Positions 3,230-50,625 of a stretch of DNA of 64,000 nt are shown piece by piece; the first letter of the stretch is position 1; each line of letters opens with the position of its first letter. The translations under genes were made by a program, and so were the position numbers. Source of the stretch: Sphagnum compactum (lineage: Eukaryota); assembly GCA_965153455.1 (NCBI GenBank), contig OZ234493.1:1798001-1862000 (forward strand). The letters are read 5' to 3'. Under the pieces are notes generated by a model, which saw only the letters and a program-made list of their open reading frames with translations, did not search any database and had not been told where the DNA came from.

Positions 3230-4050
3230 ATAAAGGCTTAGGCTTTGAGGGCGTAGACCCTAAATCATAATCTGCAAAACGGAAACCTTATTTCCTATAT
3301 GTCAAGGTTGTAGGCCTCATTTTTTTCTATCTTACATCAAAGACCAATTTCTTGTACCCTAATCCCTAAACTTTATGACCAATGTCCAACTTACTTTTAC
3401 CCACAAACCTCACACCTGAAAAACCCCAACTTTAAATGTTCAACAATTTTGATTATAGATAAATGATGAAGTACAAGGTTTAGGTTGTAGCATATAAGGT
3501 TAAGGTTGAAAAGCATAAGGTCTAACAATTGAGTTGTAGAGGATTTTGATATATGACGTGGAGTTTAAGGTTTAATATTAATTGAGTTGTAGAGGATTTT
3601 GATATATGACATGGAGTTGAAGGTTTCATATTCACGGTAAAAAGATATATTTGATATAAGATATGGAGTTTTAAGGTTTAATATTGACGGTAAAAAGATA
3701 TATTTGATATAAGATATGGAGTTTAAGGTTTCAGATTTAAGGCATAAGAATTAGGTTTTGAATATAGCATGTAAGGGTTAAGGTCTATGTTATTGCATTC
3801 AAATTTGGGGACAAGAAATAAATTTATAGACTTTTAGGGCACATGGCTTAGTGAATAGGATTTAGGCTTGTGCATTCAAGTTATACAATACAGGGTTAAG
3901 GGTTTGGGACTAGATATAAGATGTACATAATACATGGGTTTAGGGTTTAAGATTTTCAGTTGTGCCGCAGAAAACTTTGGATACAAGGCAACAGGTACAC
4001 GGGTAGGGATTTAGGCATATGATATAAGGGACAAGGTTAAGGTCCCACCT
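3230..4050. repeat. Degenerate TTTAGGG/CCCTAAA-like low-complexity region with internal ~50-bp tandem duplications
   Basis: Many gggtttaggg/aggtttaagg variants and ccctaaa near 3258-3370. Duplicated units: 'attgagttgtagaggattttgatatatgac' (3528, 3581) and 'acggtaaaaagatatatttgatataagatatggag' (3634, 3687). Confidence 0.6.
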
Positions 4051-4269
4051 GGATTAATCCTGAGAAAACTTAAGCTTTTCTGTTGGAAAACTGTCCAGTA
4101 ATGGAAGGCAAGGTTGGAATCAAGAAATTGAGAATTGAGAAATCTCCATACTCACCATCAGTAAAGCCGGAACAGTTTACAAGCTTTTCCATGAAGTGAA
4201 AGAAAAAGTTCCAGATATAAGGAATTATAGAAGCAGGAAAAAGAGACAACACAAAAGGGTTGAACTAAA

Positions 4270-4990
4270 CTGAAGAAACAAAAACTAGTATGAAAAAAAG
4301 TGAGAGTTTCTCACTTGTTCAGGGACCTTCACTGTGTACGATAGCAATTTGTATGTCACAACTCCCCCCTGATTTCATCAGCTGCCTACAGTAAGTATAG
4401 GTGGATGCATCCACTAACCTGTGAACTGCATTTTAGTTGCAAGTCCAGAAGCAACAAGAAGACTCAGCCATGACATTGGCGAGCAACCAACAACAGACAA
4501 TGGGAAAACATAGAGAAAAGTTGCGGGGAAAAAACAAAATAGCACACAATAAGAAGAAAAAACCATAGAATAACAGACAAAAAGGGGAAAGTCAAAGAGA
4601 ACCAAGTGAGCACAAAACAGCACCCCACGTGAATTTTGCCATCACACAAACGTGGCATCTGCAGCCAAAGCAATAGATATTGATGAAATTGCAGAAAAAC
4701 CCTCCACAACAACAATTTGAAGGTAGGACAACAGTGATTGCAGCCATAACCTTATGAGATTCACTCACAAAGTGTCTAAACATCATCACTTTGATCACAA
4801 ATAGCAATGATGTACTGCCCTAACCACCCGATGACTTCATCAGCTCCTTACAGAGTGTGTAGATACATACACATCAACCCAGAATCTTGTCAAACCAGAT
4901 TTCAAAATCTGTGCCTTGATTTTCTGTCACATTTCAGAAGCCACAAGAAGACTCAGGTATGATGTTGGCTAGCACTAAGAGACATAGCTA
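4270..4990 (-). mobile_element. Two tandem copies of a Penelope-like element terminal (pLTR-like) segment, no ORF
   Basis: The reverse complements of 4285-4500 and 4800-4980 share 'gct(a/c)gcca...ctgagtcttc...gcttc' and 'ctgta(g/a)g(c/g)agctgatgaa(a/g)tc' with the sequence 3' of the Penelope-like ORF at 8810-9020. Confidence 0.6.
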
Positions 4991-5139
4991 AAGGAAAGAA
5001 GTCAATAGTATCCTCTTTCAAGCTGCAACATGCTTGAAACAAGAGCAGACATAGGAATTCATGCAGTTGGACAAGCCTCACATCATACAGGAATGTTGAA
5101 ACATACCCAACTTTACTAATCCATGCTGAAGTTCCTTTT

Positions 5140-6130
5140 TACCTTGGTTCAATCCACAAGGTAACAGGAATATATGAACAAATGACTAAATGAGGGTGAA
5201 TTCTTCTAGAAAAGAGTGAATGTTTAGAGGATGAGTCTACAACTACTTCACTTGAGTAGGTGTAGTGAGGTTGAAGACCAAACCCTCTGTGTTGATATAG
5301 CACCATTTTACCCTCTCAATTCTTCCCTGGATACAATGACTTCAGCAAACAGGGGGCTATGGAGTGCTTTCATATAATTTAGTAGAGAAACCAACAACCC
5401 AGCACAACATTTGAACATCACACTCCCTATCTTGCATCGAACTTCCAACTGTTCATCCTGAGAACAGATCATGATTGGTTACAGACTAGCGAAAATGCTC
5501 ACTAGAGCTTCCAATTGATACAGATGTACCTAGCAAGCACTGAACAGTTCAACTCAAAACACAACAGACACAAGGCATTACTCCAACTCCATCTTAACAT
5601 AACCGTAAATCTCCTTTGCCAGTTCAAAGAAAAGCTCTTTCGCTGCTCAAATTTCTCATAATTCAATTGGGTCAGCAACTAAAGCAGAAATATCTTGCTG
5701 TCTATGACCAACTCCATGAATCCGTGAAACAAACTTGGAGTTTCTTCTGCAATCTCCTATGATATATTCTGTAAGAAGTCACATTATGTTGCCAAAAAAA
5801 TGAGGCAGGTAAGACAACAGTCCAAGTGAGGAAGATGAATGACACAACTACAAATCTGTTGCCAGAGATTCGAGACTTCGAAGAAATTGTGAAGGAAAAG
5901 AGGCTGCTCTCACACTTACAGTTTTGTGTTGACAACCATCCAGAAATGTCTGGTTGGTGCACAACCCGTCCATGAGCTTAGGCTTCATCAGATACCACAA
6001 GCACAACCAAACACCAAATCTCGAGGGGACCTGAAGTGAGCAGAAAACTTTGAAGACATTTTGATGATTGTAAACATCAGGAAATCAGATTCTGTTTTTT
6101 TCGTTTCCATCATCTCACATTGCTCATCAT
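5140..6130 (-). pseudogene. Possible decayed protein-coding gene of unknown family, divergent from APX
   Basis: Protein-like frame interrupted by in-frame stops (QQDISALVADPIEL*EI*AAKELFFELAKEIYGYVKMELE*...QDEQLEVRCKIGSVMFKCC), with splice-like ends (ccaag|gtaa near 5142). No family recognised. Confidence 0.3.
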
Positions 6131-6354
6131 ATGAATTCAGTTGTCTATTAGGACAAGAAGAATAGGCAACGAGAAGAATTAACGTCACAACCCCCCGGCT
6201 CTCATGGCAATCAAAAGCGGAAGCACCCAAAACCTCCAGGAGAAGAGATCAAAGAGCTGATAAGGCAAGAAACTTGAGTCTACAATCAGTACCTTCTTCA
6301 TCCTGAAATGATCCTCATCACCAAAAACTGCAACACCTTTTGTGCTTTTCTGTA

Positions 6355-6560
6355 CAAACATCTTTCCAGCTCCATGAAGCCATTGTTCAAGATCCAAGAA
6401 GCAGCATCTTTCAAGCTTAATGAAGCAATTGCTCAAGATCCATGAAGCAAATTGCTCAAGATATATGAAGCAGCATCTTTCAAGCTCCATGAAGCAATGT
6501 TCAAGAGTCATGTATCAGCATCTTTCTAGCTACATGAAGAAATTGTTTAAGATCCATAAA
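6355..6560. repeat. Degenerate ~21-23-bp tandem repeat
   Basis: About 9 alternating units of 'catgaagca(g/a)...tcaag(a/c)t'. Confidence 0.7.
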
Positions 6561-7368
6561 CTGAAGTCCTAGCTCTCAAAAAAGAATGGCCTTACGTTGC
6601 AGCACAAGGCTCTCTTTTCACAAGAAAAGCTCGTCAAAGACAGCAACGACACCCAAGAGGGCTGTCAAAAAACACTTCAGAAGAAAAGAAAAAAGTTGCC
6701 AATCTTTTGCAAGGGAATGCGAGGCGATGGGTGCACAACAGAGCACCACCTCTTGCACCTTGGAATGAATGTTGGTCACTACTGCTGTCATCAAGACTAT
6801 TGTTGACAGGCGAGAAATTTTGCTTATCGATTCCACACCAAAGTGCATGAGAGAGGGATGAGAGAGGCTCCAAATAGTTCTTCTCCGCTTGCTGATTGCG
6901 GCGGCGCCATTATCATCTTCTAGGGTTTCCAGAAGAATCGATGCAACTTTTTGCCCCGTTTAGTACAGTGAACGGGTTCACGGCCGGGTTCAGAATCAAG
7001 TCAATAATACACTTTTCGTGACCTAAGCTTGATAAGTGGGAGACAAAGGAGAGATACAACAGAGACACGATAGAGAAAGAGAGAGAGAAGAGAACTTGTT
7101 GGAGTTGCTGATCAAGAGAAAGGAGCGTGAGGCGTAGACTCCTTGAAGCAAAGTGAGGCTTTTGGCAAGCTTGCCTTGTACACAGCCTTTTCGGTGTCTT
7201 TGTGTGTGTATGTGTGTGTGTGTTTTGCAACAAAAGTTTGATCATGGTTCAAGACTTTTGGTTGCAATCTCAACTCTGTGTGTTATCGTTTTCTTTTTGG
7301 TTTCTTCCAGTTCTTTTGCTGATGATTCGGTTTTGGATTGTCGTGGGTTGCAACTCTCAAGAGGCATG

Positions 7369-7416
7369 GTGTGTGTGTGTGTGTGTGTGTGTCTCTCTCT
7401 CTCTCTCTCTCTCTCT
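7369..7416. repeat. Compound (GT)n(CT)n microsatellite upstream of the APX start (likely 5' UTR intron)
   Basis: Directly visible in the sequence. Confidence 0.95.
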
Positions 7417-7874
7417 TTTGCTAGCTTGTCTACTTCTGCGTTGGGTTGTTTGCTGTAGTTCTGAATCCGTCCATAGTCTAGCACAGTCACAAACTCTGCC
7501 AGCTGGATATGATGCTGGGAGCCTGTGGTGCTCTCCAGCAATCAAGCTTCATATGTGGTGGCGAGAGTTTTCTGACTGCGATCGCCGGATCTAGAGTTGG
7601 AAGGCGTTGCCTTCTGTGTTGTAACTTCGGTCTGGTTGTCCAGCCTCCTTAAAAGCGTTATTTGTAGAAGCTTGCTTTATTCTAGTACCATTGAAACTGT
7701 GTAAAAGGCAGATCAGAGATTATTCTACCCATTTTTCTTCCCTGGCCAAGATGCGAAGGTGCGACTGGATGCTTCTGTCACGTGCAGCATGGGTGATGGG
7801 TGTTGCCAGAAGCATATGGGTTGCACTATATTGCAAATGTAGTGTCTAAAGTGCTCATTTGTCTCTCTTGCAGA

Positions 7875-10800
7875 ATGGCTAAGAATTACCCAACAGTGAG
7901 TGCTGAGTATACCACTGCTGTGGAGAAGGCTCGTCGCAAACTGCGAGGTTTGATTGCTGGTATGTTGATCATCCCACTGTTGATGACTCCGGTATGTTAT
8001 CTTGTGCTAGAATTCACAGAGATCCTTACTGGTGGTGATGAGTGAAGCTTGCAAAGTCTCTATGACCTTATAACAACCTAATCATATGATGGTAGGATTA
8101 CCTTACGGAAGTGTATGTTCCATCTAATACGTAGATCTCAGGACCATAAGTTGGTAGTGTGTTTTTAGCAGAATGAAGTTTTGCTGCTTAAGGGATTGTC
8201 AAAATTTTGTTGCGATTTTGAGAAAACTCTGAGTGAGAGTCATTTCCCCTTTGCAAACTTTTGCTTGTTCTCCACTTTTGCTTGCATATACCCAAAAACC
8301 TCTTGCGAGTTGAATTGTACATCTAAAGGCTTCTCTTGTAATTTCTTGGATCTAACTGTGAGCCAGAGTCCTCAAGGTTTATCCTGTGACATTTTTGACA
8401 AACGCTCTCAACCAGAGTATGCAGGTATTGAAATGATTAGAATGCCACACGTTCATTCTAATATCTCAATGACTGCGAAGCTCGGGGTTATCAATAGTCA
8501 ATTTTACAGGTTCTTGAGACTTTGTAGTTGCAAAAAGTTTTTTGTCTTCCAGATGGTCAGTCTTATCGTCTTTCTGAAGGCAAAAGGCTACCCTTTTAAA
8601 GTTCTTCTAAAGAGAACTAGAGGGTTGGTTCTTAAAGAAAAATTCCTCTTTGGAATTTCAGCTTTTGGCATTTTCAGAATGATTTTGCTTCGGGTCATGT
8701 AAGTGGGGAGCTTTCTGTAAGCCCACTTGTTCTTTGTCTTTCCCTGTCCTTTCCCTTTCTGTCTTTCTTTGTTTCTTTGTCTGGTCTTTGTTGTGGTTTT
8801 GTTGTGGTGTCTGTTGCTAGCCAGTAGTATGGCTGAGTCTTCCCGTTGCTTCCAGAATTGCAGCAGAAACTCAGTTCGCAGGTTGGTGCTTGTCACTGGC
8901 CTTTACCCACTGTAGGGAGCTGATGAAGTCAGTGGGGAAGTTGTGATAGTTAAGTCACTATCATACATACTACTGTTGATGGTCCCTGAACAGGTGTGAG
9001 ACTGGCACTTTTGTTCATACCGGTGTGTGTTTTTTGTTTTTAGTTTTGTTTCTTGTCTTCCCTTGTTTGGTTCTTTCTGTGGCTTCCTGAGGAAGTGTTA
9101 GCCTTGCTGTTTCTTCTTCATTGTGAGAACGGATATTTCTCTATTCTCATGAAAGATATTGTTCTCCACCTTTGTCATTGAAATGAACTCATAAGTTAGA
9201 GCCTACCTTAATCATTTGTGTTTAGAAGTTTTCTGATTGATTGTGTGCTGATTGGTGGTGTTGCTAAACATCATCACTGTGAACTGCAGGTAACCCAACT
9301 CCCTAAGGATCTTAATGCTTCATGTAGATGGGAAATGCAAATTTTGTGACCATTAAGGAGCCTTGTCACGAGCTACTTCGATGTTGGTCTGATTTTTATT
9401 TTTGGTTCCATTGTTCTTGTGATGTGCAGAAAAGAATTGTGCTCCTATCATTGTGCGTCTTGCGTAAGTTACTTTCTGATCTTGTCACTCTGTACCATTT
9501 CAATTCTAGTGGGTTTAGGTGATGAAGTTCACTTCTTGGTTTGAACTTGTGTGTCCTAAAGTCCTTGATGCTAAGAATTTTAATTGTTTCTACAGTTATT
9601 GTTGAACATTCTAATGCTTATAGTTGCAGCATGTCAGCTTCAGGATTTGGAGGGTTCCATTGTTGTCCTTCCTTGGGTATCTGAGTACCTCTACTTGCCT
9701 CCTTAGAATATGCCAATGAGTGGTAGGATACCACTGTTGCTCTTGGGAACAGGTGGCATGGTGCTGGTACCTATGACTGCAAGTCCAAGACTGGAGGACC
9801 TTTTGGAACTATAAGGAATGCAGAGGAGCTTGCCCATGGGGCCAATGCTGGCCTTGACATTGCCGTGAAGCTTCTTCAGCCCATCAAGGACCAATTTCCA
9901 ATCATCACATATGCTGATTTTTACCAGGTGCCCTTCTCCTCAAATACAGTCAAATGTTCTCTTCAAAGTCCAGTTCTACTTGCTGGTTTGTATGTGAAGC
10001 CATCTGGCTGTGGAGATTTCTCTGCAATGTTAGAGATATGTTTGCCTGGACTCTGAGCAAATTCTTATGTACTCATCAACACCAACCATTGTCTGATGAA
10101 GTCTGTGAGAAGTAATGGTGACCAGTAACTGACAATCATGATGAAGGTGATAGTCAGCTTTGTGAGGGACACCCACAAGGTTATGACCACAACTGTTTTT
10201 GACATGTTCATTTGGGTGTCACTGGAACTGAGCTTTAGAAAGTGTTATTATGGCATTTTCTCTGCATTCTCTTATGTATGGTCAGACTTAGGTTTCAGAC
10301 ACGAGTTTCCTGATGGTCATGATCCACAATCAATTGCTAGTCTTTGCAAGGCAAATTCCGCATACAGTTTAGAGTTTTGAAGGTGTAGGAGTTACTCAGT
10401 GTGGTCTATGCTTTTGTCTTTCAGCTTGCAGGTGTTGTTGCAGTTGAGATCACTGGTGGGCCTACTATCCCCTTCCACCCAGGAAGAGAGGTATTGATTT
10501 TGACCTTTGCTATGCCTGGAATTCATTGACACTATTGTAGGTATTCCAGTGCTCCTATCTCAGAACTTAACTTGCAGATATGAATGTGGTGGATGTAGAC
10601 CCTGGTTTCTCTTTTTCTAGCTTCTTGTAGAGTTTTTTTGCTTCAAACTGCCTGTTTCTGAAGCCTGAAATTGTCTCTTCCACCCTTGAGTTAAAAAACA
10701 ATTTCGGAGGTTAAATACACCTATGTTCTGAAATCTGTGAAAGACAGCCTTGTGATTTCTCGTTGTTGGCTGTTGATCACTTGTTGTATGCTGGCTCAAC

Positions 10801-12596
10801 ACTACAATGTTTCTTTTTTACTATGGCCTTGGGTTTCAGGATGGACCAGTTTGCCCAGTTGAAGGTCGGCTTCCTGATGCCACTAAAGGTACAGATTAGC
10901 AACCCTGTCAGTCATATTGTTCTCTCAGTCCACCCTTGTATTTGTATTCCTTGTCTGCCCTCTGATGCTTTTGTGTGCAAGACACTTTCTGGATATGAAG
11001 AGATTGATTAATGAAGAAGCCTTTGTTCCATCTCTTGCATCACCACTCATTGCATATAGGGGATTTTGGTTCAGGGGCAGATAATTATTCATGAAATATT
11101 CCTTTTTTGCCTTCATCTACAGCTGAAGACTGCTCATCTATCAACTGCACTCAAAGGTCTTGTCTCTGATTATTTGGTCTGTAGGTGTGGATCATCTTCG
11201 CAATGTGTTTAACGATGGGATGGGTCTGACTGATCTGGATATTGTGACTCTCTCTGGAGCTCACACTCTGGTATGCTCCAAGTTCTTGCTGAAATTGAGG
11301 TGTGTTATTGAGACATGTCTGCAGACATGAGTCAGTATTTTCAACAGTCGACTGAATTCTCACAGGGCATTCTCCTCTGTGGATGCACAGCATGCACTCC
11401 TGTGCTCATGCTATGATGAGATTATGCACTTAAAATGAATGTCTTGGGTAATGCAATTCTGGAATTCATCTCCTCATTGATCTCTGACCCTTCAATTGAA
11501 TGTAACAGGGTAGATGCCACAAGGAACGGTCAGGCTTTGAGGGTGCATGGACTCCAAACCCTCTCCAGTTTGACAACACTTATTTCACGTGAGTGATGGC
11601 TTTTCATTTCAAAGGTGCTTGAGATGAAGGTTTTTTAAGTGTCATATGGCATTTAAAAGAGGTCTTCTCAATCTAAGTTGCTGGATGCTTTTGAACTTTG
11701 GACCTTTCATGATCAAGCACAGGAATGAGATGCAGACATGGTCTGAGGATTCACAAAATGACCCAAGTTTTGTAGTCAACTGGGTAGTAGGTAAATCCTC
11801 CTTGTCTCTTGCTGCCCATGGTTTTGATAAGGAACTGCTGATTTTGGCAGAGAATTGCTGTCTGGAGAGAAGGAAGGTTTAATCCAGCTTCCGTCTGATA
11901 AGGCACTTCTTGAGGATCCTGTCACGCGTGAACTGGTTGAGCTGTATGCCAAGGTTAGCTGGGGCACTGTCTATCCTTTCTCACAACTTGAAAATTGTGG
12001 ATGCATTGATGGATCATGGAGTGAGACCTGTTCCTTCATTAAACCTCTTGTTAACCTTTTTCTGTTACAGGATGAGGATAAGTTTTTTGAGGACTACACC
12101 ATTTCACACTTGAAGTTATCTGAGCTTGGGTATTTTTTTCACCTCCTTCACAAATAACACTCTACTCTGTACTGGTTGATGAGCATGAAACATCTGACAT
12201 TGTTCACTAGTCTTCAGTGTGGGGTTATGGCAGCTAGTCACTGCCATTTATGGTCTGATACTTTCCATGTCATACTTACACAAGGTTATGGGTATCTGTT
12301 GTTATGTTGATTTTGGTTCTGCTGTAACTGACATAATGGGTATCCTTGAAAGTGTTGTAGTTGAAATTTCCTCTGCAGTTGCATAGGTGTGTATATTATA
12401 TAGTCTTCATCCTATTCATAAGAGGAAGTCAATTAAATAGTATTATGTTGCTTCAATGAATCATAACTCTTGGGGCAGTGTGGCTGTAGAAATTGAAGAA
12501 ATGGTTCAGAGTTTGCAGAAATCAAAGTTTGGATTGCCAGATGAATGAGAGGACTGTTTTGTGTGTAATTGTGATCTCAGGTTTGCTGAGGCTTGA
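7875..12596 (+). CDS. APX: Cytosolic L-ascorbate peroxidase, 250 aa. Exons 7875-7959, 9430-9463, 9753-9927, 10425-10490, 10840-10888, 11185-11270, 11509-11588, 11851-11953, 12071-12129, 12581-12596
   Basis: GT-AG splicing gives 753 nt in one frame: [12 protein letters not shown]...[20 protein letters not shown]...[10 protein letters not shown]...[22 protein letters not shown]...QLPSDKALL...LSELGFAEA*. Distal R/W/H and proximal H/W/D residues are present; there is no transit peptide or TM tail. Confidence 0.97.
8181..9150 (+). mobile_element. 5'-truncated Penelope-like retroelement (RT C-terminal/thumb region plus 3' terminal segment) inside APX intron 7960-9429
   Basis: ORF 8181-8702 has IYP..L...FLDL.V......IFDKR...MPHVHSN....[17 protein letters not shown]....F.....L..KGYP, the typical pattern of Penelope RT motif 7 and thumb. 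It is followed by a T-rich tract and a segment repeated elsewhere in the window. Confidence 0.8.
8890..9020 (+). ncRNA. Candidate structured RNA (hammerhead-like CUGAUGA core) in the PLE terminal repeat
   Basis: CTGATGA at 8920-8926 flanked by possible stems (cactggc/gtcagtg; ctttac/gtaggg; tgtgatagt/actatcata). The core recurs at 4375-4381(-), 4837-4843(-) and 10093-10099(+). A canonical GAAA box could not be placed. Confidence 0.4.
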
Positions 12597-13925
12597 ACAG
12601 CTGAAATGGTTACTACACAACTTGGAGGCTTAGGGAGCAGTAAGAGAAAATCAGCTTTTGGTTGGCACTGCCATCAGTGCTATCCATTTGATGATTCTTT
12701 TACAGATTTGGGGGATCTATTTATGATCTTCATATTTGCTATGTAATTTGGTATGAAGAGCCCTGGACTCTGCATTACAATACCATTATTATAATACACT
12801 AGTGTTTATTTAACACTACTATTCTTGAAGTTTTGTTGAAGGGTTTTCCAGGACAAACGTGACACATGAAACAGCCATCATGAGAGAAGGAAATACTTAC
12901 TAAAGCTCTAAGTTGTGTAGTGAAGTCATCGGTGTCTATGCTTGGCTCCTGGATTGGATGGGCCCCTTGAGGAATTATCAAACTACTTGACAAGTTACTT
13001 TCTCCACTGGTGCAGGAGAAATCTTTTCTAAAGTTTGAACATAGAAGTTTATAGAACCATTTTCTAATCAGATAATTGGTGAATTATATGAACAATTTTA
13101 TTTTTGTGGAAGATGCATGAGTACACTGTTTGATAAGGCACAATCTATGAATATGCTTATAAAACCTCTGGTAATGAAATATTGGACACCACCTCCTTTC
13201 CCCAAATTTAGATAAAAACGTGAAGAATGCGAGTCCTTAATTGAAACAAAGAATCACTAATCACCAAATTTTTGTGAAAGTCATGATGAATGATACCAAC
13301 TATGCATCATCAAGGACTATGAAAAAGCAGTGATGAAACTGCCCTAGGATAAAGTGCATTGTGCACAATAAATGCCATAAAATTTGCAGCCATGTCCAAT
13401 GCCTCTGCAAATGAAATATAACAAAACAGCTCAATGCTTATGGTCTAAAAATTATCATGAGAAATAAAAAGTATATTCACATAACCTTTGCCTCTAAGCA
13501 AACTTTGCTAATTGGGATGAAAGCACAAATACATCTTCTTTCTTCCAATCACATTGCAATAGTGAAATGGAAGATGTTTGTTACTTATAAATAAGCTAGA
13601 TAACTAAAGGTAGTTTGGTATAACTCACTTCAATCCTATCCAAGTTATTCGACATCCAAATCCCATATTCTCCCACCGGCTCTTTGAAAAGTGAAGGTGA
13701 CAATTCAGATCCAATTGAAGCACAGCAGAAACTGTATGAAGCAGAAGTTACAAGTGCAAAATTCCAAGTATCAAGTTTGTAAGATACTTGCTCCTAATGT
13801 GTAAAAGCTCTTCACAATAATGTTCTCTTGTTTTTCGCGTGATAACCATGTTATTATGAGTATATGTCCTGTGAATTTGGGCAATTTTACATTGAGGGTA
13901 TTTTCTCTTCTGAGAATCCAGGGCC

Positions 13926-16900
13926 TCATTTAGGATTAGGCTTTTTGATTGTCAGCTCAGCCCGCAAATGCAATACACTATCATGGAAATATTCAGAGTC
14001 TTCTGAAATGAAATGCTGCCAGTTCATCCCAAAAAGGTTTCTGTACCCTACTGCCTTGCCACCAGTAAAAACATAGCTCCCTTTTGATTTCACCATGAAC
14101 TCCCAAGTTGGCTTTGTTCGGGCAGCAAATTCATAGTCCACTGCAAAGCTCATGGACCCCTTCTCCTGTAAACAAAACAGATAATCAACTTCCACTTCAG
14201 GGCTCACAGTCTTCCACAAAAGATGCACAAATTGAAGTTACAATAAAGTTGTCTCTTTTGGCAAGACAGTTGACAAGCCAATCTCCTTACTAACCACAAA
14301 CTGATTATATATATTTGCCAGGGCATGACTCAGCAAGCATAGGAGCACAGGCACCTCCATGTAAAGGATCATAAGGTAACAGAATCCAATGCATTGAGAG
14401 GTGATGATTGTGCAGTGTGCAATTCTACAACGTTCAATGTTTCTTCTATCATGCTATGAATCGTCCAAACTGTTTTAGGTTGCTGTAAAGGACCAGGTTG
14501 CAGAACAAGTAGCACACAAAGGTCCCTATATCAAACTTATAATCTTTTACTCAACCCACCAGTTTAACCTATGTGATTTACAGAAATTAAACACAGTCAG
14601 ATAAAATATATATGTCATCTGACACAAACACTTGAACAACATTGATGTAATTGTGGAACTAATGAGTCAGAAACAGAATTACGAGAGAAAGATCCTGTGA
14701 CCATGCAAGAAGAGGAAACAGCAAAATTACAATTGCAAAGCGTGGCAACAACAGCAGGACCACCAAGAGCAGAGGAGACATGCACATCCTTGATATCTTG
14801 CTATGCCAAGACACCTTCAAGCAGGGGAAAGAAGAAAAAATAGTACACACCTGCATTCCTAGGAAAAGCCCAAAGCATTTGCATTGGCCCTGTTGATCCA
14901 GATTGCAATGGGCAGAGAGAAAGAAGCCTTGACCACCCAAGTGAAATGCTTGGGAATAAACACGGCCTTGTGGAAAAAGAGCACGGCACTCATCGATTTT
15001 GAGATCAAAGAAGACAAGACACTGCTGATATGGAGCATCAAATTCCACCACTTTAACAGGCCTGTATTTATATGCTCTCTCACAATAACGCTTATGCAGA
15101 GTCTCCTCCAGTGCAAGCTGGCGTTGCCGATGTGGTGGTTCTGCACGAAAAAAGAGAGCCTCCAGAACCAGTTTGGATGCCAGCTCATGCTCAAAGTCTG
15201 CACAGTTAAGGACTTTCCTGAGTTTTCGACTTGACATCATTGGAAACCGGATGAGGCAGACTATTCTGGAACCAAGGACTTCTCGCCGTTCTTCAAGTTT
15301 GGAATAATGCTGGCGTGCCCACCTCAATGCGAAATCATAGACAGCATCCTCACTTGGTACTTGTAGGTCATCACTTGAAAGAACTGCTTCAAAACCCGCC
15401 AATGGAAGACCCATTACATCATCACTAAACCTGCATCCATCCCATCACAGTAGAGTATCAACATAAAACCCTCAAACCTCACTACAACTCCAATCAACAA
15501 CTTAAAATGATATGGTCTTGTGACATCCATGACACACTTGACAACCCTACATCATTCCTCCAACCAAAGTAGTCATGGTAAGTAAAAAACCCTACCTTGT
15601 AATATCTTTGTACCGAGAAGCCAAGTAGGAGCGAGCTGCATCTGTTAGGGGTTGTACGGCATCTGCAAGGAGAACACTAGAAGGAAGATCCAAATATAGC
15701 AATGCAGACTCTGCTGTCATAGGCATATTCCGAAGCAAGCGACTGCAATATCGCATACAGGATGCAACCTCATACTTATCTGCAGCCATTAAAACATCAA
15801 GCACAGAGGAGGGTGTGTTCGCATGAACCCTCCCACTGTACATGAACTGCAGCAAATCCATCAATGGCACCTCCTCTGCAACCCATCAAATTTATCAGGA
15901 AAACCCACATCAAAGACCTTGCATCACAAAACTAGGATTGACAACAAGATATTCAGAAGTAACATTCCACTCAGGAAGCTTGCACTGGAGTTTTAATTTG
16001 ATAAGTCTTCACGCCAAAGAATGAATCTGGGTTGTCAAACTTTTCAATTGCACCTTAACAGTTGCTCGTTTGTTGTCTTCAAAATAACAAGGTTACCAAA
16101 CTACTCACCAATTTCAATGCTCTTGTGATTCTGTATGAGGAAAAAAGCGTTCTTTGCCAACAAGGACTGGTAGGTGTAAGCCTGCTTAAACAATGAAGAG
16201 GCCCATTTGGCAGGAGAAAACCCACCTGAAGGAGCAATCCGCAGTGTCACACCCCGTTGTTCCGATTCCCGCATCCCGTTTGAGAACAACTTAATCCATC
16301 AGATTCAACCCATTACATTCAGCACATAAAACTGACAACCTCAATCAAGAGTTTGACAACAATTGTTTGGACCAATTAATATCTCGACAAACAAGCAGGG
16401 GCATGACTGAGGGACAAAACATTCTATGATATAAGAACAAAAGCAATGCCAGCAGCCAGTAGAAAGGCTGCAATAATAGCCTTCACATGTGTGCTTTAAA
16501 ACCTCAGTCTGCATACCTTATAAAAGTAAGGGCTTTTGGCAGCAAGAATTGCTGAGCTTATGTGCACAGATTTGCTTCTGAGTACAGTTGCCGTTTCCAT
16601 GTTCCATGACCCAAAACTTCCAGTTCCATCATCTGCTGAGACCCCAAACCCAACCCTGACATCAGTCACACATCCAAGTCTAACTGTTCTTCATGTGTAC
16701 TAAAGAAATGTAGGATTGAGAATCCAGCAATTGCCTTATGAACATAAGCACTCTCTTTACTGACAGATTTAATAGAACCCTAGAAAGAAATATCTGCATA
16801 AATACTCTCTGAGTATCAATTGCCTTCTGGAGGATGCTCGCTGGCCCAGATTTTCTCATTCAAACAATTTTTAAGGAACAAGAGAACCTCCAGGGCTCGA

Positions 16901-17901
16901 AAACATGCCACTGCCTCCACATGGCTCTTCCTTCATAGCAACACCTTCTTCTTCAGCATCATGGGGTGCTACATCATCATCATTAACAAGCATGACCTGC
17001 TCTTCTTGTCCCTCCACTGATTGTGCCTCTGAAATTTTTCCCAGCAGCTTTGATACACCCTCCACAACTGAACCATCCCATGAGACAAAACCTCTTCAAA
17101 AGAGCTCTCTGCCAAATTTGTTACACAAACTCCTTGCAGTAAAAATGGCAGGTATGACCACTTCCTGCAAGAACATTGCCTATTCCAACCGCCCAATCTT
17201 CATTGGAAGGAAGATATTAAAATAAACCATCCTCAATAGCTGGGATCATTCGAGCAAAGAAAGAGAGAGGTGTTCAACTGCTCTTACAAGACAGATTCCT
17301 TAAAATTCCTCAATGTATGTAAATGGAGTAAGGCACTCAAAGCTTGGAGCAAATTGGCTTACAACCATGCGAAATAACATGGAGGTCAGTGGAAATGATA
17401 TGGCATGAAACTAAACATTGTGGGAGAAAAGCTTGAAAATTTGCTGAACTGCTTGGAATCTGCATGGTAGTAGGAGCTTCAGTGCAAAATGCACGATGAA
17501 CTTTAGGGGTTGAACTGGCCTATTCTTGAATGCACATACTCCTCACAACAAGTAGAGGCTAACATTTGATCTGGATATCCACTACCACTCTCAACAGACT
17601 AACTGTAGCCTTCAATCTCTTGCTAAGAAGATAAACTGGGACATCCTGTGCATCACTGGATTTTATTTGTGGTATATATTTGGTGACTAGGGAAAGGGAG
17701 AAGGAGCATACCTGCTTCTGTATTGTGGTCTGCTCGCCGCCGTTTCTTCTGCCTTGCACAAGAGCTTTCTGCATCGAACTTCTCAGGAACTGCAAGGATA
17801 TCTATCTGAAGCACCCTATCTGAGAAATTGCTGTCATTGAATGCAAATGTGAAGGTCACAGGTGCTGATGCACCCCCACTACTACATCCCTCATGATCCA
17901 T
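13926..17901 (-). CDS. POB1: BTB/POZ-BACK domain protein of the POB1/LRB family, about 526 aa. Exons 17901-17712, 17016-16909, 16635-16517, 16289-16226, 15875-15596, 15430-14851, 14165-13926
   Basis: Spliced frame of 1581 nt with [92 protein letters not shown] and [14 protein letters not shown], matching the Arabidopsis POB1/LRB proteins. Confidence 0.95.
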
Positions 17902-19509
17902 GGGCCGTTTTGTGTTCTTTATGCCAACAGGAAAATCTTAAACCTCTGCCTAACATGCCATGTACTCAGCTCTTTCAGATGTTGAACATTGACTTCTGAC
18001 ACCCTGTCGGAAAGTTTTGCCCATCTCAACACTTCCTTCACCTGTCAAATTTCAGATTCCAAATATGTTACTGGAGCACATTGTTCATCACAAGTTCCAG
18101 ATAACACACCTGCATACTCCAGACACATATCATTGTGAACCAACTTCTTGACCTTCCACCATTGCTGGATAGACATATTTCCATGAGATTGCAGAGAAAG
18201 ATCCACATTAGCAATCTGAAATTCACTGTTATGCCAAAACCTGGAAAAAAAAAACTGGCACAATGAGAACAAGTGTGGTCATGATATTGCGAGTGTAACT
18301 CACAAACTATCAGACCATTGCCATTATCAATGAATAGCAGTAACTAGTGCAATTATTACACACTGACTTCATCGGCTCCCACCAGTGGATGTAGGTAAGT
18401 GTACAAGAATCTACCAAAATTTTAGGCAAACAACTAGACAAATGTTTGTCCTGAGTTTCTTTCAAATATCCAGAAGCAATACCCCACACTCTCACAGCAT
18501 GATTCAGCTAAAAACAGCTTTCCCGCATTAAAAAGCACATAATAGATTGCCCCACAGTGCATGTAGGGAAACCTCTTGCAACACTACAGGACAACAACCA
18601 GGAATGGCTTCTATCCCCTGATCCTGCACGATTCTTGAAAACCGATAACCTAAAAACATAGACAACAACATGAGCAACAGAAAAGAAAAGGGGAAAAATA
18701 CACTTCCTAAAGAACACGAAACAAGCAGCCACTGTGCTATCTAGTGTGTTCATGACCACAGGTATTCTTCCGCAGAGAGTTCTACCTAAAAACAAAAAGC
18801 CACCATGAACAACAGAGAACAATAATGCCATAGCAGCGTCATCACAAGCTTAACGCAAACCCTACAAGCTTCCTCTCAAGGACGAGAAACATCAAACCGT
18901 AGACACCAATACAAAACACAAAACTGACATTCATTTCCAAGAAGATGACCGAATAGGAGGCGCGGCGAATAGAGAAGAGAAGGAGGAGGAAGGCCTGGTA
19001 TCACAAAATACTAGCAAGAACGACGCGGCATTGTTGGTGATGATAAGATAGAGAGATAGAGAGAGGGGGCGGGGGGAAAAAAGTTTAACGGCAGAACACA
19101 AACCTTGTTCACTCATAGTGACAACCTCACATCACGGCTGCAATTCTTGAGAGGGTGGGGGCGATGATGCTGATGATGCATGCATTCATTTTTGCAGTTC
19201 GTCAAGCCGCCATTCCCCTTTTGTCTTCACAATGCTTTTCACTGCTGCTTCTTCTTCTTCTTCTTCTTCTGGTTCTCGAGAGCGTTTGGCGACAAAACCC
19301 TTTCCTGCGATGAGGATGCAGAAGAAGCGAAAGACCTTTACTTTGCTTTCCTTGCGTGTATGATTGGGGCTCTCAAAAGCTGGAAGCCCCAAAAAACAAA
19401 CAAATAGGAGGTGGGCACTGGGAGGGGGAGGCGGAAGGGCGAGGGTGGCCGGGGCTGGGGGGGGGGGGGTGCGGTGGCCAGAACCCAATTCTGGGGTCTT
19501 GGTATCTAC

Positions 19510-22500
19510 CAGTGTTGGGCTGGTTCTCTAATTCTGACGCGGTTCTCACAGTGAGAACCGGTTGACATGGTTGATTGTGAGAACCGGGTGGAGAATCGAC
19601 CTCCGGTTCCCACATGAACGAGAACCGGTTGGGAGAATCGTTCCTCGTTATTTCTAATTTTGGAAACCCGGACAGGTTCTCTCAGAGAACTTACATCTGG
19701 TTCTAGGTAGTTTAAGGTTTAGGGTTCCTAAAGAACGCACTACAGCTTAATGAGGCAGAGGTGTTGTTTAGGGTTAGGGATAGAGAACTTGCATCTGGTT
19801 CTCAGTAGTTTAAGGTTTAGGGTTCCTAAACAGCCGCTGCAGCTTAACGAAGCAAAGGCACTGCTTAGGGTTAGGGGTAAAGAAGAAGTATAAAATTGAA
19901 GCCCATGTTTCATTTTTTGTCACAAAAACTTTTTTTTGTCTTCTAGAGTTGTAGTGATTAGTGATGTTCATTTGTGTTTGTTTGTTTGTTGTTATTGCTT
20001 TGTGTTGCATTTGTTAGATTCTAGTTTTTAGAATTTAGTTTTTTTTTTCATGTTTTTTTCACAATGCTCCTCTCATGTTGATTCTCTGGTGTTGTTCTTC
20101 ACGTTGCTCCTCTCATGTTGCTCCTCGCACTATTTCTCTTGTGCTCCCTCTTCTTGCATTATTGTTCCTTATGAATTATCGTTCTTCTCATGCTGCTGCT
20201 CTTTAGGTGTTGCGACTCCTTTCACGTTGCTACTCTTCTCGCATTGTTACTCCTCTCACACAATTCCTCCTCTCATGCAACTCCTTTCACATTGTAGCTC
20301 TTGCACCGCCCTTCCCATGCAGCAGCTCTCACATTGCTCTTCCCGCGCTACAACTCTCGTGTCACTCCTCTCACACTATAGCTTTTACGCGGCTCTTCTC
20401 ACATTGTAACTTCCATGCAGCTCCTCTCATGTTGCAACTCTCAATTGCTCCTTTCATGTTGTAGCTTTAGCGTTACTCCTCACGCGCTGCCCTTTTCGAA
20501 CTACAGAAGCTATGCGTGCTACTCTTCTCACGTTGCAACTCTTCTCCCGCAACTACTCTTCTCACATTATTTATTTCAAGTACCTACTAGCTTAGCATTT
20601 GTTGCTTTTCTCATGCTGTCATTGATACTCCTTTCACACTATTACTTTGTTTTGCTTAGTTGGTATGGTATTTCACCCCTACCCTTGCCATGTGCAAGTG
20701 AAGCTTAGAGCTTCGACTAAGCTTCGACACCAACTCGAACACCAAAGGTCAGAGCTTGGAACTTCAACACTAACTCGAACACCAAAGGTAAATTACATTG
20801 CATATTTTCATTTTTTGATGTTTTTTTTTAATTGCAACTTCGTTTTATTTTATTTGTTTTGTTGTTTTTTTGTTGTTGTTTCTACTTTGTTTTTTTTTCA
20901 TTTTGTGTTGTTTCTTTTCATTATGTAATTATTTTCTAATTGATGTGTTTTTTTTTTGCAAGATTTTCTAAACTTAAACATAAATTATAAATTTTCTTCA
21001 CCTAGAAAACCCATACATTTTCCAACCTTATAATCCCCAATCCCTAAATTTTTTCTAAGAAAAATACATATCTTATTTTTCTAAAATCTTAGAAGATAGA
21101 TTGCATTTCATAATTGCTTATAAATGTTTTTTAGTCTTTGATAAATAACATTTTGTAATTGTTTGTAGTTGTTTGTAGATGTTAGTTTTTAGTTTTTAGT
21201 TTTTTGATAAGATCATTTATTTATTTTTTCGCTACTCATTAGGGCAGTAATTCTTAATCACAAAACAAATTAATTATTAATCACAAATCTAAGTAATAAT
21301 GGAACAGTTTCTAAAAAATGAAAATACATGTAATGTATTCATGAATGAAATAAGAATATAAGATGAAATGTTGGTAGAACCTAAAGAAATGGTTAGTCTT
21401 CAAACAGAAGGAAAGAGGAATTCAAAAAATAATTAAAAAAATTACTGAAATTACATGCTCATTTGGAAAGGAAATAGTAGAAACGCATTGTGTTGGGCAT
21501 TTTATTGTGTTAATGATAACAAAGAAGTTAGTGCAACAACTCCTCAAACTATGTGATGTATTTTTTGTCACAATAATCTAGTATTGAATATAAATCCAAA
21601 AACACAAGCTAGGAAAGGATTAATCATATATAATTCATCTAATGGCATAGTTGCATTGAGGAAACATGTCAATTTAGATCATCTTAATATTTTAAAAAAA
21701 TTTGAAGAAGAAATGAATTGTCCTTTGAAGGGAGATGAAAGATGACCTTCCAAAAAGAGACCAAATGTTTTTTCTAATTCCATAACTAGTTCTTTTGCTG
21801 TAAAAAAACCTTTTAAATAATATGATGTGCAACAAAAACAATTTCTTGAATATTTGAATCTTTTAATTGTCAAAAACCATCTTCCTTTACAATTTGTAGA
21901 AAGAAATTGGTTAAAAAGATTTAATATGCATTTGTGTCCCAGAATTATTTTTCCTTCAAAAAAACAATTTTGTAATGAATTACTACTCAAATTAGTGGAA
22001 AAACTAAACAATTATATGTTTTACCAACTTTAGTGTGATGTCATTATATAACTAAAAGCTTTGATCTGTGGACGTAAAAAGCTAGCCATGATATTTTTGC
22101 ATTAGTGATTAAATTTTTAGGAGATGATTAGCAACCAAAGCACATTACCCTTGGTCTTTTTGAGCCAATAGACACTATTGGACAAACTTTGGCCAAAAAG
22201 TTGACAGAATTGTTGGACAGTTATGCATTGAGGAGAAAAATAATTGCTTATGTCAAGGATGAAGGATCTAATCTAAACATTATGATTATAGCTTTAAAAT
22301 CAATTGTAAATTGTGATATGTTGAGTTTGGAGGAAAGTTTTCAGGGCATTTATTTTGGGCATGCATTTTCCAAGGCTTGCCAATATGCTACAACGAAGGA
22401 AAAAGTTTGCAAAGACTTACGATATGTGTCAATCAAATTTGTTCAAGGAGATTTGTAAAAATGCATAGTTTCGTTAAAAAAATCTAGAATGGGTAGGCAA

Positions 22501-28569: not shown

Positions 28570-31500
28570 TTTACTCAGTCTGGTGGAACGTGATAGATCT
28601 GGAGATCCCGCCGAAACCTTTCCCACTAGTGTCCGTCAGCATCTCGGATGATGCATACCCGACTGCCTTCTTCAAAGTCAAAGTTTCCTTGCCCATCAAC
28701 ATGCCTTACGAACTGATATGGACCCTCCCAGCTTGTAGATAAAGCTCTTCTCTTTCCTGGTGTCTTCATCTTCACCATCGTCGCCCCTGCAACCAGTCCC
28801 TCAAACAGATGCTTACCTTTCCGAGTGGCATAAGTCTTTCTTTACTGCTTTTGTGCTTGCTCCACATTGAGCAAAATGCTTTCGTGGATGCTTGCAATAA
28901 GCTCCATTTTCTGCAAAAATTGTGCTGCAGCAACCTCCACATCCGCAACATCATCAATCTGAGCAGTCAGAGCGTGCAGGTAATTGTCTGCCCTGAGACG
29001 TGGTGTGCGACCAGTCAGAATCATGAAGGGTGAAAACCTTGTACTAGCCTGGATCCCACATCGGTACCCAAACAGAACCTTAGCTAGAAGCTCGTCCCAA
29101 CAATCCACATTGCCTGGTGTTGCAGCAAGAACAGTGATGCCATGGTTGATGGTCTTGATTATGCGCTCCGCCATCCCATTGCATTGAGGCCACATAGGTG
29201 CAGTGCGCTGATGCTGGATTCCGTAGTTCTTGCACATCATCTCGAATTCTGCAGCCCATTCTGCACCATTGTCAGTGAGTACGAATTTGGGTACTCCATA
29301 CCTGCAGATGATGTCGTCTTCCAAGAATCTGGATGCAGTCTTAGCACTATGATCAGCAACCGCCTTTGCCTCGCACCACTTGGAATAGTGGTCGATGGCC
29401 ACCAAAATGTATTTGTTTCCTGACTTAGTTTCAGGCAATGGTCCTGCAGTGTCCAATGCAACTGTATGGAATAAGTCACAGATAGGAATGCTCTTCAATT
29501 GCTCATCCCCAGAGCGGATACTACCTTTGCTCCTCACCAGTTGGCATTGTTGGCACCTTCTGACTACCATATTAACATTCGCAGTTCGATGATGCTAGAA
29601 GTACCTTCGACGGATCTCAGCCAACGTTCTCTGTTCCCCAAAATGCCCCAGATCTTCATGCGTTTGACTCACCAGGGATATCCTTTCCTCCGGCTTGGGC
29701 ACAAGTAACCCCTTGAAGTAAAGCCTCTGCTCTTTCCAGCAGTAGTTGCTCACCCTCTTTCTGGCCCTCTTGTTCTCCTCAAGGTCTACTGTATCGGGCA
29801 GTACACCTTCTTTCAATAATCCCAAACAAACTGCATCTTTCCAGATGTCAATGCACCTCGCATCCACTTCCTGATCTTCCTCATCATCAGATTCAGTATG
29901 ACTCAACTCATGGTCCCTAAACTCAGCTAGTTCCTGAGCCTCCAATACCAGGTCCAGTTGCTGCCGCTTGTCAAAGTACTGGGGTCTCCTTCTCTTCACC
30001 ACCATTCTCTCACCATCGTCCTACACAAGCTCACCCCCATTTGCAGCTTCTGCTTCACCTGAAACAACCTCCTTGGGTTGCTCTTCTCCTGATACAACGT
30101 CAACTACATATAGCTGATGGCTGCCGTCATACCTATAGTGGTTAATCCCGAAACAATAGGTACGGTGTTGTACTAACTCCCTATCCCTTCTCCTGACACC
30201 AAGCCATTCTGTTTCCTTGCCTGTCCGAACACAGAGAAATTCCTCTTCTCCTGTATGTGCATCAGTTTGAGTGCCTGCAATGTCTTGTATCTCTTATCAT
30301 CATCAGCAGCTGGTCCAATTGGATTCCTACTCAAGGCATCGACATTTGTATGCTTGAGTCCAGGTCGGTGTATTATCGTGAAACTAAAATCTTGTAACAT
30401 ATCTACCCACCTTCCTCTCCTGCCATGCGCATCTGACACCGTAGCCAACCATTCCAGCGGCTTGTGGTCTGTGCGTAGAATAAAATGATTTTTGTGCAAG
30501 TACTGCCTAAAATGCATGACGCCCCAGATCAGCGCGTAGCATTCCCCTTCCATGGGATGGAACTTCCTCTGTGCCTCTGTCAGGCTCTTGCTGGCGTACG
30601 CTACCACCTTCTCAAACCTCCCCTCTTTCTGTGACAATATAGCTCCAACACCCTTGGGCGACCAGTCTACGTCCAGCCAAAATGTTCTTTTGAAATCTGG
30701 TCGTGTGAGTACAGGCGCGCCCACCAGCGCTGCCTTTAACGCCTGGTATGCCTGTTGACAGCCCACATCCCACACAAATGCAACGTCCTTCCTTGTTAAC
30801 TCAAACAAAGGACCTGCCAATCTCGAATAGCCTCGAATATACTTTCGGTAGTAACCTGTCAGACCTAAGAACGACTTGACACTTGTGACAGTCTTCGGTG
30901 TAGAACTGCTTCGATTTTCCTAGGATCCGGTCTGGTGCCCTCCTTGCTTACCACATGGCCCAAAAATGTAATAGTCTTAGCAGCAAAGCAACACTTGTTT
31001 GGGTTCAGTTTAAGATTCACTTCCTTGAGTTTGCAGAGAACTGTATCCAGATGTTGGAGATGCTCCCCCCAACTCTTGCTGTGTACATTGAGGTCATCAA
31101 CGAATACCTTCAGAAACTTGTTGCCCAAATCCTTAAAGACCTCTGACATAGTTTGGGTGAACGTACTCATTGGGTTCTTCAGTCCGAATGGCATAACTAT
31201 CCAGTCATACAATCCAGTCTTAGTAATCAGAGCGATCTTCTTCATGTCCTCTAGAGCCATCCGAATTTGCCAAAAACCAGACTGCAAATCTAAGGCAGTG
31301 AACCATGATGAGTTTCCCAGCTGATCAATCACATCCTCCACGAGTGGCATCGGAAATGAATCTCGACGCATTTATGCATTAAGTGGCTGATAGTCTCCAC
31401 AGAAACGCCTGCTCCCATCTTTCTTCACTGGCAGAGTCACCCAACAGGCATACTCAGAGTTGCTGGGCCTCATCTTACCCAAATTTACCAGGACATCTAT

Positions 31501-33935: not shown

Positions 33936-34063
33936 GCAAATACGCAGCTGCACACCACAATTGCATACACTCCACACACGGTTCCTCAAATCACAATCAA
34001 ATAACAAAATTGATCAGCTTCTCAGCCGCTTTTGTTCATGTTTGATCTTGAGAAAGACAAACA

Positions 34064-50300: not shown

Positions 50301-50625
50301 CGTGTCTAGCAGCTGCTGGGTCATGATCGACCGATCTCAAGTTGGAAAATTGTGGTCTTTGGGTCGAGGTTGATGCAACCCCGTAACTCGATCCTGCTGT
50401 ACGCTGCTGCTGATCCTGCAGACCCAAAACCGTGAAGCCGTGATGTTGTTGTATATATTCACTCGCATGCGTGACTGTTGATCGTCTGGTGTTGTCGAAT
50501 ATATTACGCGAGGCCTCGGCCTCCTCAGAGCGGACAGAGCTTGTGGCTGTGGTGCCCATGGAATTGAGGTCCCTGACTTGCTCAATTTCGGGATACTCCA
50601 CCTGTTCTGACGAGAACTTGTCCAT
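47390..50625 (-). CDS. SHR: SHORT-ROOT-like GRAS transcription factor, 599 aa. Exons 50625-49738, 49426-48962, 48332-48016, 47519-47390
   Basis: 1800-nt spliced frame: [102 protein letters not shown]|YKEGW and FLTWK...ASSWKP, diagnostic of the SHR clade. Confidence 0.95.

Follow-up and report, generated by a model that had tools for sequence, protein, structure and literature searches.

Introduction

Does a short sequence that resembles part of the hammerhead ribozyme, and that recurs in moss nuclear DNA, belong to a self-cleaving RNA, or is it held in place by some other structure? The question is raised by a locus around position 8,920 of a 64,000-nucleotide stretch of Sphagnum compactum (contig OZ234493.1 of assembly GCA_965153455.1, positions 1,798,001 to 1,862,000 of the forward strand); this whole stretch is called the window, and its own coordinates are used throughout. 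An earlier note, made from the letters of this DNA, described here a recurrent structured RNA with a CUGAUGA core in a Penelope-like retroelement, and proposed a variant, extended or split hammerhead or an undescribed self-cleaving RNA.

That the motif locus is a conserved, structured domain in the 3' untranslated region (UTR) of a Penelope-like retrotransposon of the N-terminal-nuclease type seems settled. The domain, which is ~200 nt long, is transcribed on the sense strand; its helices are kept by compensatory changes, and the loop that contains the motif, the apical loop of an arm that we label SL3, is kept by sequence. Most likely this loop is part of a cis element for the retrotransposon's own reverse transcriptase (RT), a role to which we assign a probability of roughly 0.55. 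The finding turns an apparent new ribozyme into a more ordinary but still useful RNA domain.

Recurrence of the motif and its copies

With at most one mismatch, CTGATGAAGTC occurs six times in the window (8920+, 10093+, 4833-, 4371-, 18365- and 5981-), compared with 1.66 ± 1.27 occurrences in shuffled windows, of which one in 100 reaches six; the claim that the motif recurs is therefore borne out. The match at 5981-5991(-) is not recognised as a copy of the domain by nhmmer or by our covariance model, and may be due to chance. Repeat finding and blastn within the window link 8805-9045(+) to 4263-4495(-), 4817-4974(-) and 18356-18415(-).

At least 431 relatives of the open reading frame (ORF) remnant next to the motif were found among 600 candidate metagenome stretches, and the best 80 loci were kept. 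The counts given below refer to a young set of 45 distinct copies and to a diverged set of 19 mutually diverged copies, aligned with one another as alignment A2. A profile of the young family detected copies B, C and E in the window (Table 1) and about 25 diverged copies in the loci, and a second round added more. There are two main lineages, distinguished by how long one arm is and by their last hairpin.

Among the diverged copies, the block 8915-8938 is the conservation maximum, with a mean majority fraction of 0.79 for the best 11-mers as against mostly 0.4-0.7 elsewhere. Contigs from other subfamilies, both DNA and RNA, agree with copy A, the copy at the locus in question, over 8905-8938 only and then diverge (loose ends 8905 and 8938). 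The divergence of neighbouring sequence on which the earlier note had remarked is thus seen, and it arises because the copies belong to different subfamilies; the copies are, however, pieces of a transposable element and not separate motifs. A conserved exon or a duplicated part of a gene was rejected as the identity of these copies.

Three boxes recall the hammerhead core. CTGATGA, at 8920-8926 in copy A, is present in 44 of the 45 young copies, and the looser form CTGANGA in 44 young and 8 of the 19 diverged copies. The upstream box ctgagtcttc, which contains a GUC and had been pointed out previously, is present at 8833-8842 in copy A, and GAGTCTTC is kept in 43 of the 45 young copies. The statement that a canonical GAAA box is missing proved wrong: a conserved AGAAAC lies at 8865-8870 (41/45 young and 5/19 diverged copies), ~55 nt upstream of CUGAUGA, and pairs with the GUC box in the nested fold described below. 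A downstream stretch said to be common to two copies is present in copies A and B.

The element that carries the motif

When the window is aligned with the 80 loci by blastn, similarity starts at 8284 (52 alignments), all 80 loci cover 8350-8650 and about 56 reach 9150; the ends of similarity range over 8958-9166 and pile up sharply at 9158-9166. Because this similarity runs through the stop codon of the ORF to 9158-9166, the motif lies inside the 3' UTR (8703-9163) of the element. The Penelope-like context had been recognised correctly. The ORF remnant (P0001, 8169-8702) stands directly upstream of copy A, and its relatives P0002 to P0010 share 49-80% identity, RT motifs and the same end point. 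No second RT remnant was found by tblastn of the window, and viral contigs contained neither a relative of the ORF nor a match to the motif. Copies of the family are variably truncated at the 5' side and end in ...AUGAAAGAUAU without poly(A), after which unrelated flanks follow; all of the best 80 loci can be aligned across the stop codon and 3' UTR as far as this sharp 3' end. Summed contig word depth in the DNA run, which is not equal to copy number, is ~50 in the unique flanks, 12,000-20,000 in the ORF part and up to 73,800 at 8914-8969. The retrotransposon family is clearly very abundant.

Two gene models touch the element. P0003 reads through into copy-A sequence, and P0007, a model of 367 amino acids, combines a DEAD-box helicase domain (Pfam, 146.7 bits) with a piece 99% identical to the ORF remnant, so that it represents either a fragment of the element that has become exonic or, on its contig of 1.5 kb, a chimeric model.

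The class of the element was read from the order of its protein domains. In the longest locus, L001, a GIY-YIG-like segment is followed by putative CxC and GxKF motifs and then by RT motifs; this reading, including the 'GCACC' and 'GTKF' in the translation, was made by eye, and the motif names follow the sections of PMC8557442 that define them. The ORF pieces of L001 itself gave no match in Pfam, and a sequence search of the PDB gave none. In an exhaustive HMMER search, the N-terminal piece aligned with relatives of 940-1220 amino acids, close to the N-terminus of each. Twelve such relatives were scanned: seven have a Pfam GIY-YIG match near the N-terminus at E<0.01 (two of the 12 above the curated cut-off), and five have a weak RVT_1 match near the C-terminus, all below the cut-off. 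This order of domains indicates that the element has the Naiad/Chlamys architecture, with an N-terminal GIY-YIG nuclease and a C-terminal RT in one ORF. A protein atlas provided leads only, namely RT clusters with HTH_animal and DUF8422.

Some copies are arranged head to tail. The 3' end of the copy C element (4680-4975) abuts the start of the copy B element (4125-4660), both on the minus strand; the segment 9945-10285(+) is composite, the 3' end of another copy at 10009-10039 preceding copy D; and the same arrangement is found in loci L005, L011, L012 and L074. Upstream of the most complete copy, in locus L029, lies the 3' part of an older copy in the same orientation (L029:1-335), whose core is degenerate and whose 3'-end motif lies near 300-335, an arrangement that resembles a pseudo-long terminal repeat (pseudo-LTR). 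The junction at the 3' end runs directly into an older copy in 4 of 46 cases among the young copies, and 14 of 16 extra domain copies situated at most 2.5 kb from an RT-bearing copy are on the same strand. These head-to-tail copies recall the partial tandems of Penelope-like elements; the majority of copies are solitary and 5'-truncated.

Raw poly(A) reads from the same species (RNA run X22; element span 8242-9193) cover the element at a depth of 126-1053, almost wholly on the sense strand, with 1053 sense against 1.9 antisense at 8914-8969. The unique intron flanks have an RNA depth of 0, and the element reads therefore come from other copies. The reads continue beyond the 3' end of the element, where their flanks vary (loose ends 9159 and 9160; agreement 0.45-0.49), so that 3'-end formation is not simple. 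Sense-strand RNA together with read-through suggests promoter activity of the element's own, not random host transcription. In 21 raw reads of the same run there is a joint from 8995 back to 8878 with one extra T, which may come from a rearranged genomic copy, from an alignment effect of a shared CAGGT, or from a back-joined RNA.

A nested fold supported by covariation

RNAfold predicts the same nested minimum-free-energy (MFE) fold for copy A (-73.5 kcal/mol), for the consensus of the young copies and for that of the second lineage, and the older consensus of the first lineage retains SL3, SL4 and SL5. In the model, a closing helix, P1, surrounds four arms, SL1 to SL4, and is followed by a fifth hairpin, SL5 (Table 1). 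The proposal of a recurrent structured RNA was right in this respect: a nested, covarying fold extends across the 19 diverged and the 45 young copies.

The helices differ in how they vary. Both-side changes occur in 8 of the 10 pairs of P1 among the 19 copies, its strands being CAGUAGUAUG/CAUACUACUG in the young copies and CAUCAUGA/UCAUGAUG in the other lineage; the sequence is almost wholly different between lineages and the complementarity is kept. At the base of SL1, CUGAGU (8833-8838) pairs with ACUCAG (8869-8874); the bulged C 8839 is the C of GUC, and above it UUC (8840-8842) pairs with GAA (8866-8868) and GUUGC (8845-8849) with GCAGC (8860-8864) in the apical stem. SL3, the loop of which contains CUGAUGA (8920-8926), is the best-conserved block, and 90.4% of its cells pair in 76 distinct sequences. 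SL4, 82% paired in A2, covaries clearly (one pair is AU 38, GU 15 and GC 12 times, the next UA 56 and CG 10 times), and so does SL5, with both-side changes in 7 of 9 pairs.

Over A2, 69.3% of the cells pair, compared with 64.9 ± 0.9 in shuffles, and both-side changes are found in 66 cells, compared with 40.3; none of 500 shuffles is as good in either respect, and controls in which partners were slid give 34-50%. A covariance model, R1, which covers SL3 to SL5, has 94 matches (76 distinct) in a search space of 399,562 bases. In these matches 85.0% of the cells pair as against 78.6 in shuffles (0/500 as good; slid controls 36-63%), and 85 cells have both-side changes as against 25.9 (0/500), figures that are not independent of the model, since the alignment of the matches is fitted to the structure. 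Before AGAAAC, the second lineage has GUGAC where the young family has GCAGC, a change that makes the apical stem of SL1 stronger and abolishes the sole candidate for a hammerhead helix II. Selection favours the nested fold.

Two other pairings do no better than shuffled sequences. The hairpin that had been proposed before the core (ctttac/gtaggg) pairs in 59.1% of cells compared with 57.0 in shuffles, 118 of 500 being as good, and a pairing of the head box CUGAGUCUUC with GAAGUCAG was rejected, being 74.4% paired but equalled by 335 of 500 shuffles.

The same comparisons bear on the explanation that the block has no function and is conserved only through recent ancestry or through exchange by template switching. 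The young copies are 83-94% identical over their full length, with nearly uniform conservation, as would be expected in that case. However, lineages with unalignable flanks keep the block together with P1, SL4 and SL5 via compensatory changes, and no abundant variant without the block appears in reads at a likeness of at least 88%, among the joints listed. We consider this explanation very improbable.

The hammerhead question

Canonical hammerheads were not found. At the gathering score, neither the window nor the 108 kb of 20 loci has a match to any Rfam ribozyme family. Looser limits brought none either, with E<=10 applied to 3500-19500 and E<=5 to L029, a nearly full-length copy; the families without a match include hammerhead, twister, pistol, hatchet, HDV-like and others. 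A relaxed descriptor that allows the three canonical topologies with stems of at least 3 bp adjoining the core fits none of the 19 diverged and none of the 45 young copies. A type II hammerhead with local hairpins as helices I and III was rejected likewise, the descriptor finding no such copy. The absence of a canonical hammerhead in the Rfam and descriptor searches is in line with the Naiad/Chlamys type. The boxes follow one another in the order GUC, GAAAC, CUGAUGA, which is not a circular permutation of the hammerhead (types I, II and III).

A hammerhead-like ribozyme that keeps this non-cyclic order would have to be rewired. Helix III would be the base of SL1 (GAGU/ACUC), with C8839 as the cleavage-site C17; helix I would join UUCCC (8840-8844) to GGGAG (8915-8919) of the SL3 loop, which brings CUGAUGA beside GAA. 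Given the order of the strands, such a molecule would be a pseudoknot, outside the three known circular permutations, in which the SL3 loop docks on an opened internal loop of SL1 and assembles a hammerhead wiring that has never been described. All three boxes are conserved, as counted above, and helix III, mostly of 8 bp, and helix I, mostly of 5 bp, can flank the box-adjacent GUC in 41 of the 45 young copies. The second lineage has a GUCA following CUGAUGAA that is able to pair with the UGAC in front of AGAAAC. Hammerheads also occur in other Penelope-like clades, as the relevant parts of PMC4209133 and PMC8557442 describe. Yet not one of the 64 copies fits a canonical topology, and in the young, evidently most active family helix II amounts to 0 bp, rising to 2 bp when an A.A is passed over. 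The hammerhead-like helices I and II show no pair with both-side changes, and 311 of 500 shuffles are as good; the covariation favours the nested fold, in which GUC is paired with GAAAC, and Rfam offers no match.

The RNA reads point the same way. In the poly(A) reads there is no place where many molecules begin or end, although such a library could miss cleaved fragments, and the steps in RNA depth along the element follow those in DNA depth. The absence of a pile-up of read ends argues against efficient cleavage in vivo, the poly(A) library being a weak test. We therefore regard the rewired ribozyme as very improbable. If true, it would be a conformational switch with two states, one stable and nested and the other self-cleaving, in a Penelope-like clade thought to have lost hammerheads. 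Judged by its sequence, the CUGAUGA region resembles part of a hammerhead, apparently with no sign of folding or cutting like one, and the variant, extended or split hammerhead, or other known self-cleaving RNA, of the earlier note finds no support in Rfam, the descriptor, covariation or the RNA reads.

A probable role in reverse transcription

We propose that the RT of the element binds the 3' UTR domain in cis and would thereby position the transcript for target-primed reverse transcription. Such recognition would explain why the domain is kept in every 5'-truncated copy and why it is conserved across master copies of different lineages. The GUC, GAAAC and CUGAUGA boxes would either be left over from the hammerhead that other Penelope-like elements usually carry or be coincidental, and would be held by the new fold and not by catalysis.

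Several observations weigh against this proposal or against parts of it. Recognition by the RT, most likely as it is, is argued by analogy, and the sole Penelope-like element studied in vitro needed RNA of the junction between pseudo-LTR and ORF, not a 3' UTR domain, according to the portion of PMC11167929 concerned with it. Changes in SL3 are mostly from C-G to U-G, with both-side changes in only 4 cells. Copy A has a modest z-score of -1.98, and 8 of 200 shuffles fold as well as it does; RNAalifold predicted no pairs for the gappy 19-sequence alignment A2, and the covariation comes from about three lineages only, because most copies decay neutrally. Two decayed copies of the older lineage (L011:3500-3603 and L072:3732-3832(-)) also lack 9-11 nt covering CUGAUGAAGUC and keep the flanking halves of the stem. 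If this deletion was inherited, a sublineage has moved without the motif; no such deletion is present at 10% or more of the reads with a likeness of at least 88%.

The domain might instead serve another RNA-level role that does not involve the RT, such as translation, packaging, export from the nucleus, or the formation or protection of a 3' end that is not polyadenylated. Three features are compatible with such roles: the end of the element has no poly(A), the domain is 140 nt away from it, and reads pass this end into varied flanks. Nothing specific speaks for any of them, however: ARAGORN finds no tRNA-like structure and Rfam no known processing motif. We think a role of this kind unlikely, if still worth bearing in mind beside recognition by the RT.

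Under either role, what is gained is a defined, covarying RNA of an active-looking and very abundant Penelope-like element in a moss. It offers a concrete RNA as a candidate recognition element for the RT of this clade. It also shows cleanly how hammerhead boxes persist in a fold other than the hammerhead, and it bears on why Naiad/Chlamys elements lost the ribozyme that other Penelope-like elements kept.

Features of the window

Table 1. Parts of the element at the motif locus, parts of its structured domain, and copies of the domain in the window
Feature	Position	Strand	Description	Evidence
Penelope-like retrotransposon copy	8284..9163	+	N-terminal-nuclease type, 5'-truncated; in peroxidase intron	blastn against 80 loci
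RT ORF remnant	8286..8702	+	C-terminal part; stop TAA 8700-8702	P0001
3' UTR, first part	8703..8814	+	pyrimidine-rich	read directly; aligned in 45 young copies
P1, 5' strand	8822..8831	+	pairs with 8966-8975; closes multi-helix domain	
SL1	8833..8874	+	holds GUC box and AGAAAC box (8865-8870)	folds of three lineage consensuses and copy A
SL2	8881..8901	+	variable arm, 8 bp; ~40 nt longer in second lineage	
SL3	8906..8936	+	CCCACUG (8906-8912)/CAGUGGG (8930-8936); 17-nt loop UAGGGAGCUGAUGAAGU (8913-8929)	
SL4	8942..8965	+	UGUGAUAG/CUAUCAUA	
SL5	8988..9016	+	hairpin just 3' of P1-closed domain	
3' tail of element	9021..9163	+	ends ...AUGAAAGAUAU, without poly(A)	
Copy A	8815..9020	+	structured 3' UTR domain	nhmmer 1.4e-51 (seed member)
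Copy B	4288..4485	-	CUGAUGAAAUC at 4371-4381; element truncated near stop codon	nhmmer 7.7e-41 (profile from young family alone); R1 81.3 bits (seed member)
Copy C	4740..4975	-	second lineage; 3' end near 4680	nhmmer 1.1e-11; R1 84.8 bits (seed member)
Copy D	9968..10190	+	second lineage; in intron after exon ~9753-9928	nhmmer E 0.66 (young-family profile), 4e-34 (second round, seed member); R1 77.1 bits (seed member)
Copy E	18275..18527	-	second lineage, with CCGAUGA	nhmmer 2.3e-7; R1 93.5 bits (seed member)
Sixth copy	12160..12288	+	decayed; SL3-SL5 part; in no seed	R1 34.3 bits, E 2.2e-6 (filters off); nhmmer 8.4e-8 for 12214-12290

The window is plant nuclear DNA with a peroxidase-family gene on the plus strand, which we read from its sequence as probably ascorbate-peroxidase-like; its exon at ~9753-9928 has a Pfam peroxidase match of 19.4 bits, below the cut-off. 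The first coding intron of this gene (7958->9429), which holds copy A, is spliced out in 338 RNA reads. At 6035-6119(-) there is a candidate box C/D small nucleolar RNA (snoRNA) like plant snoR160 (35.9 bits against a gathering score of 42, E 0.009), a full-length match with the terminal stem GUGAG/CUCAC, in a stretch that has no long ORFs and is possibly the host transcript of a snoRNA.

The position of copies in introns, on the sense strand of the host gene, and the nearby snoRNA-like locus would also suit repeats that carry a small RNA gene or a polymerase III unit. As a box C/D snoRNA, the motif would have CUGAUGA as box C and the CUGA ~65 nt later as box D, and CUGA does occur at similar spacing after the motif in both lineages; as the tRNA-derived head of a short interspersed element (SINE), it would have the A-box-like TGGCTGAGTC and the B-box-like AGTTCGCAGG. 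But in none of the copies does an Rfam snoRNA match overlap the motif; nearby there is just one weak match, to U3 beside copy E (15.9 bits, E 8.3), and the copies are contiguous with an RT ORF. The snoRNA version was rejected on the ground that the boxes have no adjoining terminal stem and that the stretch before CUGA is not conserved between copies A and B. Against the SINE version, ARAGORN reports no tRNA genes and the second lineage does not conserve the B-box-like stretch. A reading of UGAUGA as box C' in the second lineage was dropped as well, this stretch actually being the 3' strand of P1. We find a small RNA gene scarcely credible.

Elsewhere in the window, a Ty3-type LTR retrotransposon at 28842-34474(-) has gag, protease, RT, RNase H and integrase distributed over at least eight stop-bounded ORFs and is therefore degenerate. 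Other genes are represented by a GRAS-family gene at 48956-50646(-), read as two ORFs, by exons of a dipeptidyl-peptidase/S9 peptidase gene at 41189-42701(+), and by a BACK-domain exon at 14659-15444(-). Tandem-repeat arrays with units of ~120, 53, 46-69 and 98 nt, together with (TG)n/(CT)n microsatellites, are found at 2394-2723, 3527-3737, 6335-6560, 19684-19884 and 7190-7410, near a divergent promoter region between the peroxidase gene and a minus-strand locus.

Comparison with known systems

The proposed role is modelled on R2 and on the 'stringent' long interspersed elements (LINEs) with their partner SINEs, where a structured 3' UTR is recognised by the element's own RT. As in those systems, the moss 3' UTR domain is kept in all 5'-truncated copies, and its structure is conserved above its sequence except in key loops. 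There is no relation in sequence or in Rfam between them, and recognition by the RT, established there, would here be a parallel drawn from these likenesses.

Plant retrozymes, as portrayed in the relevant part of PMC11722881, are non-autonomous LTR elements with type III hammerheads. A CUGAUGA core that recurs in plant repeats is common to them and the moss element, whereas the latter matches no hammerhead, lacks LTRs and gives no sign of circular RNA, and its copies are contiguous with an RT ORF.

Nearer in kind are the hammerhead ribozymes that Penelope-like elements carry in their pseudo-LTRs (Cervera and de la Pena 2014, PMC4209133, in its account of these repeats). The class of element is the same, and in both cases CUGAUGA, GAAAC and GUC boxes lie in the untranslated part that ends the element. 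The hammerheads described there are canonical; in the moss element, by contrast, the boxes stand in an order that cannot be permuted, the young family has no helix II, Rfam gives no match, and a different fold covaries.

The closest likeness is to the Naiad/Chlamys elements of Craig et al. 2021 (PMC8557442), which the pertinent sections describe as lacking canonical hammerheads. Some of these elements have a CUGANGA half-core in the 3' UTR with a GAAA half 35-50 nt to either side, and the terms 'HHR_core' and 'HHR_half_core' are used there for such cases. The clade type is the same and so is the situation, with AGAAAC ~55 nt upstream in the moss; for the half-cores those sections give no fold. 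Their list of hosts comprises green algae, Chara, spike mosses and a slime mould, with mosses entering via BLASTP hits only and with the nuclease-less type. Going by the order of its protein domains, the moss element would place its 3' UTR domain as a new case of the Naiad/Chlamys type, and one with a covarying fold.

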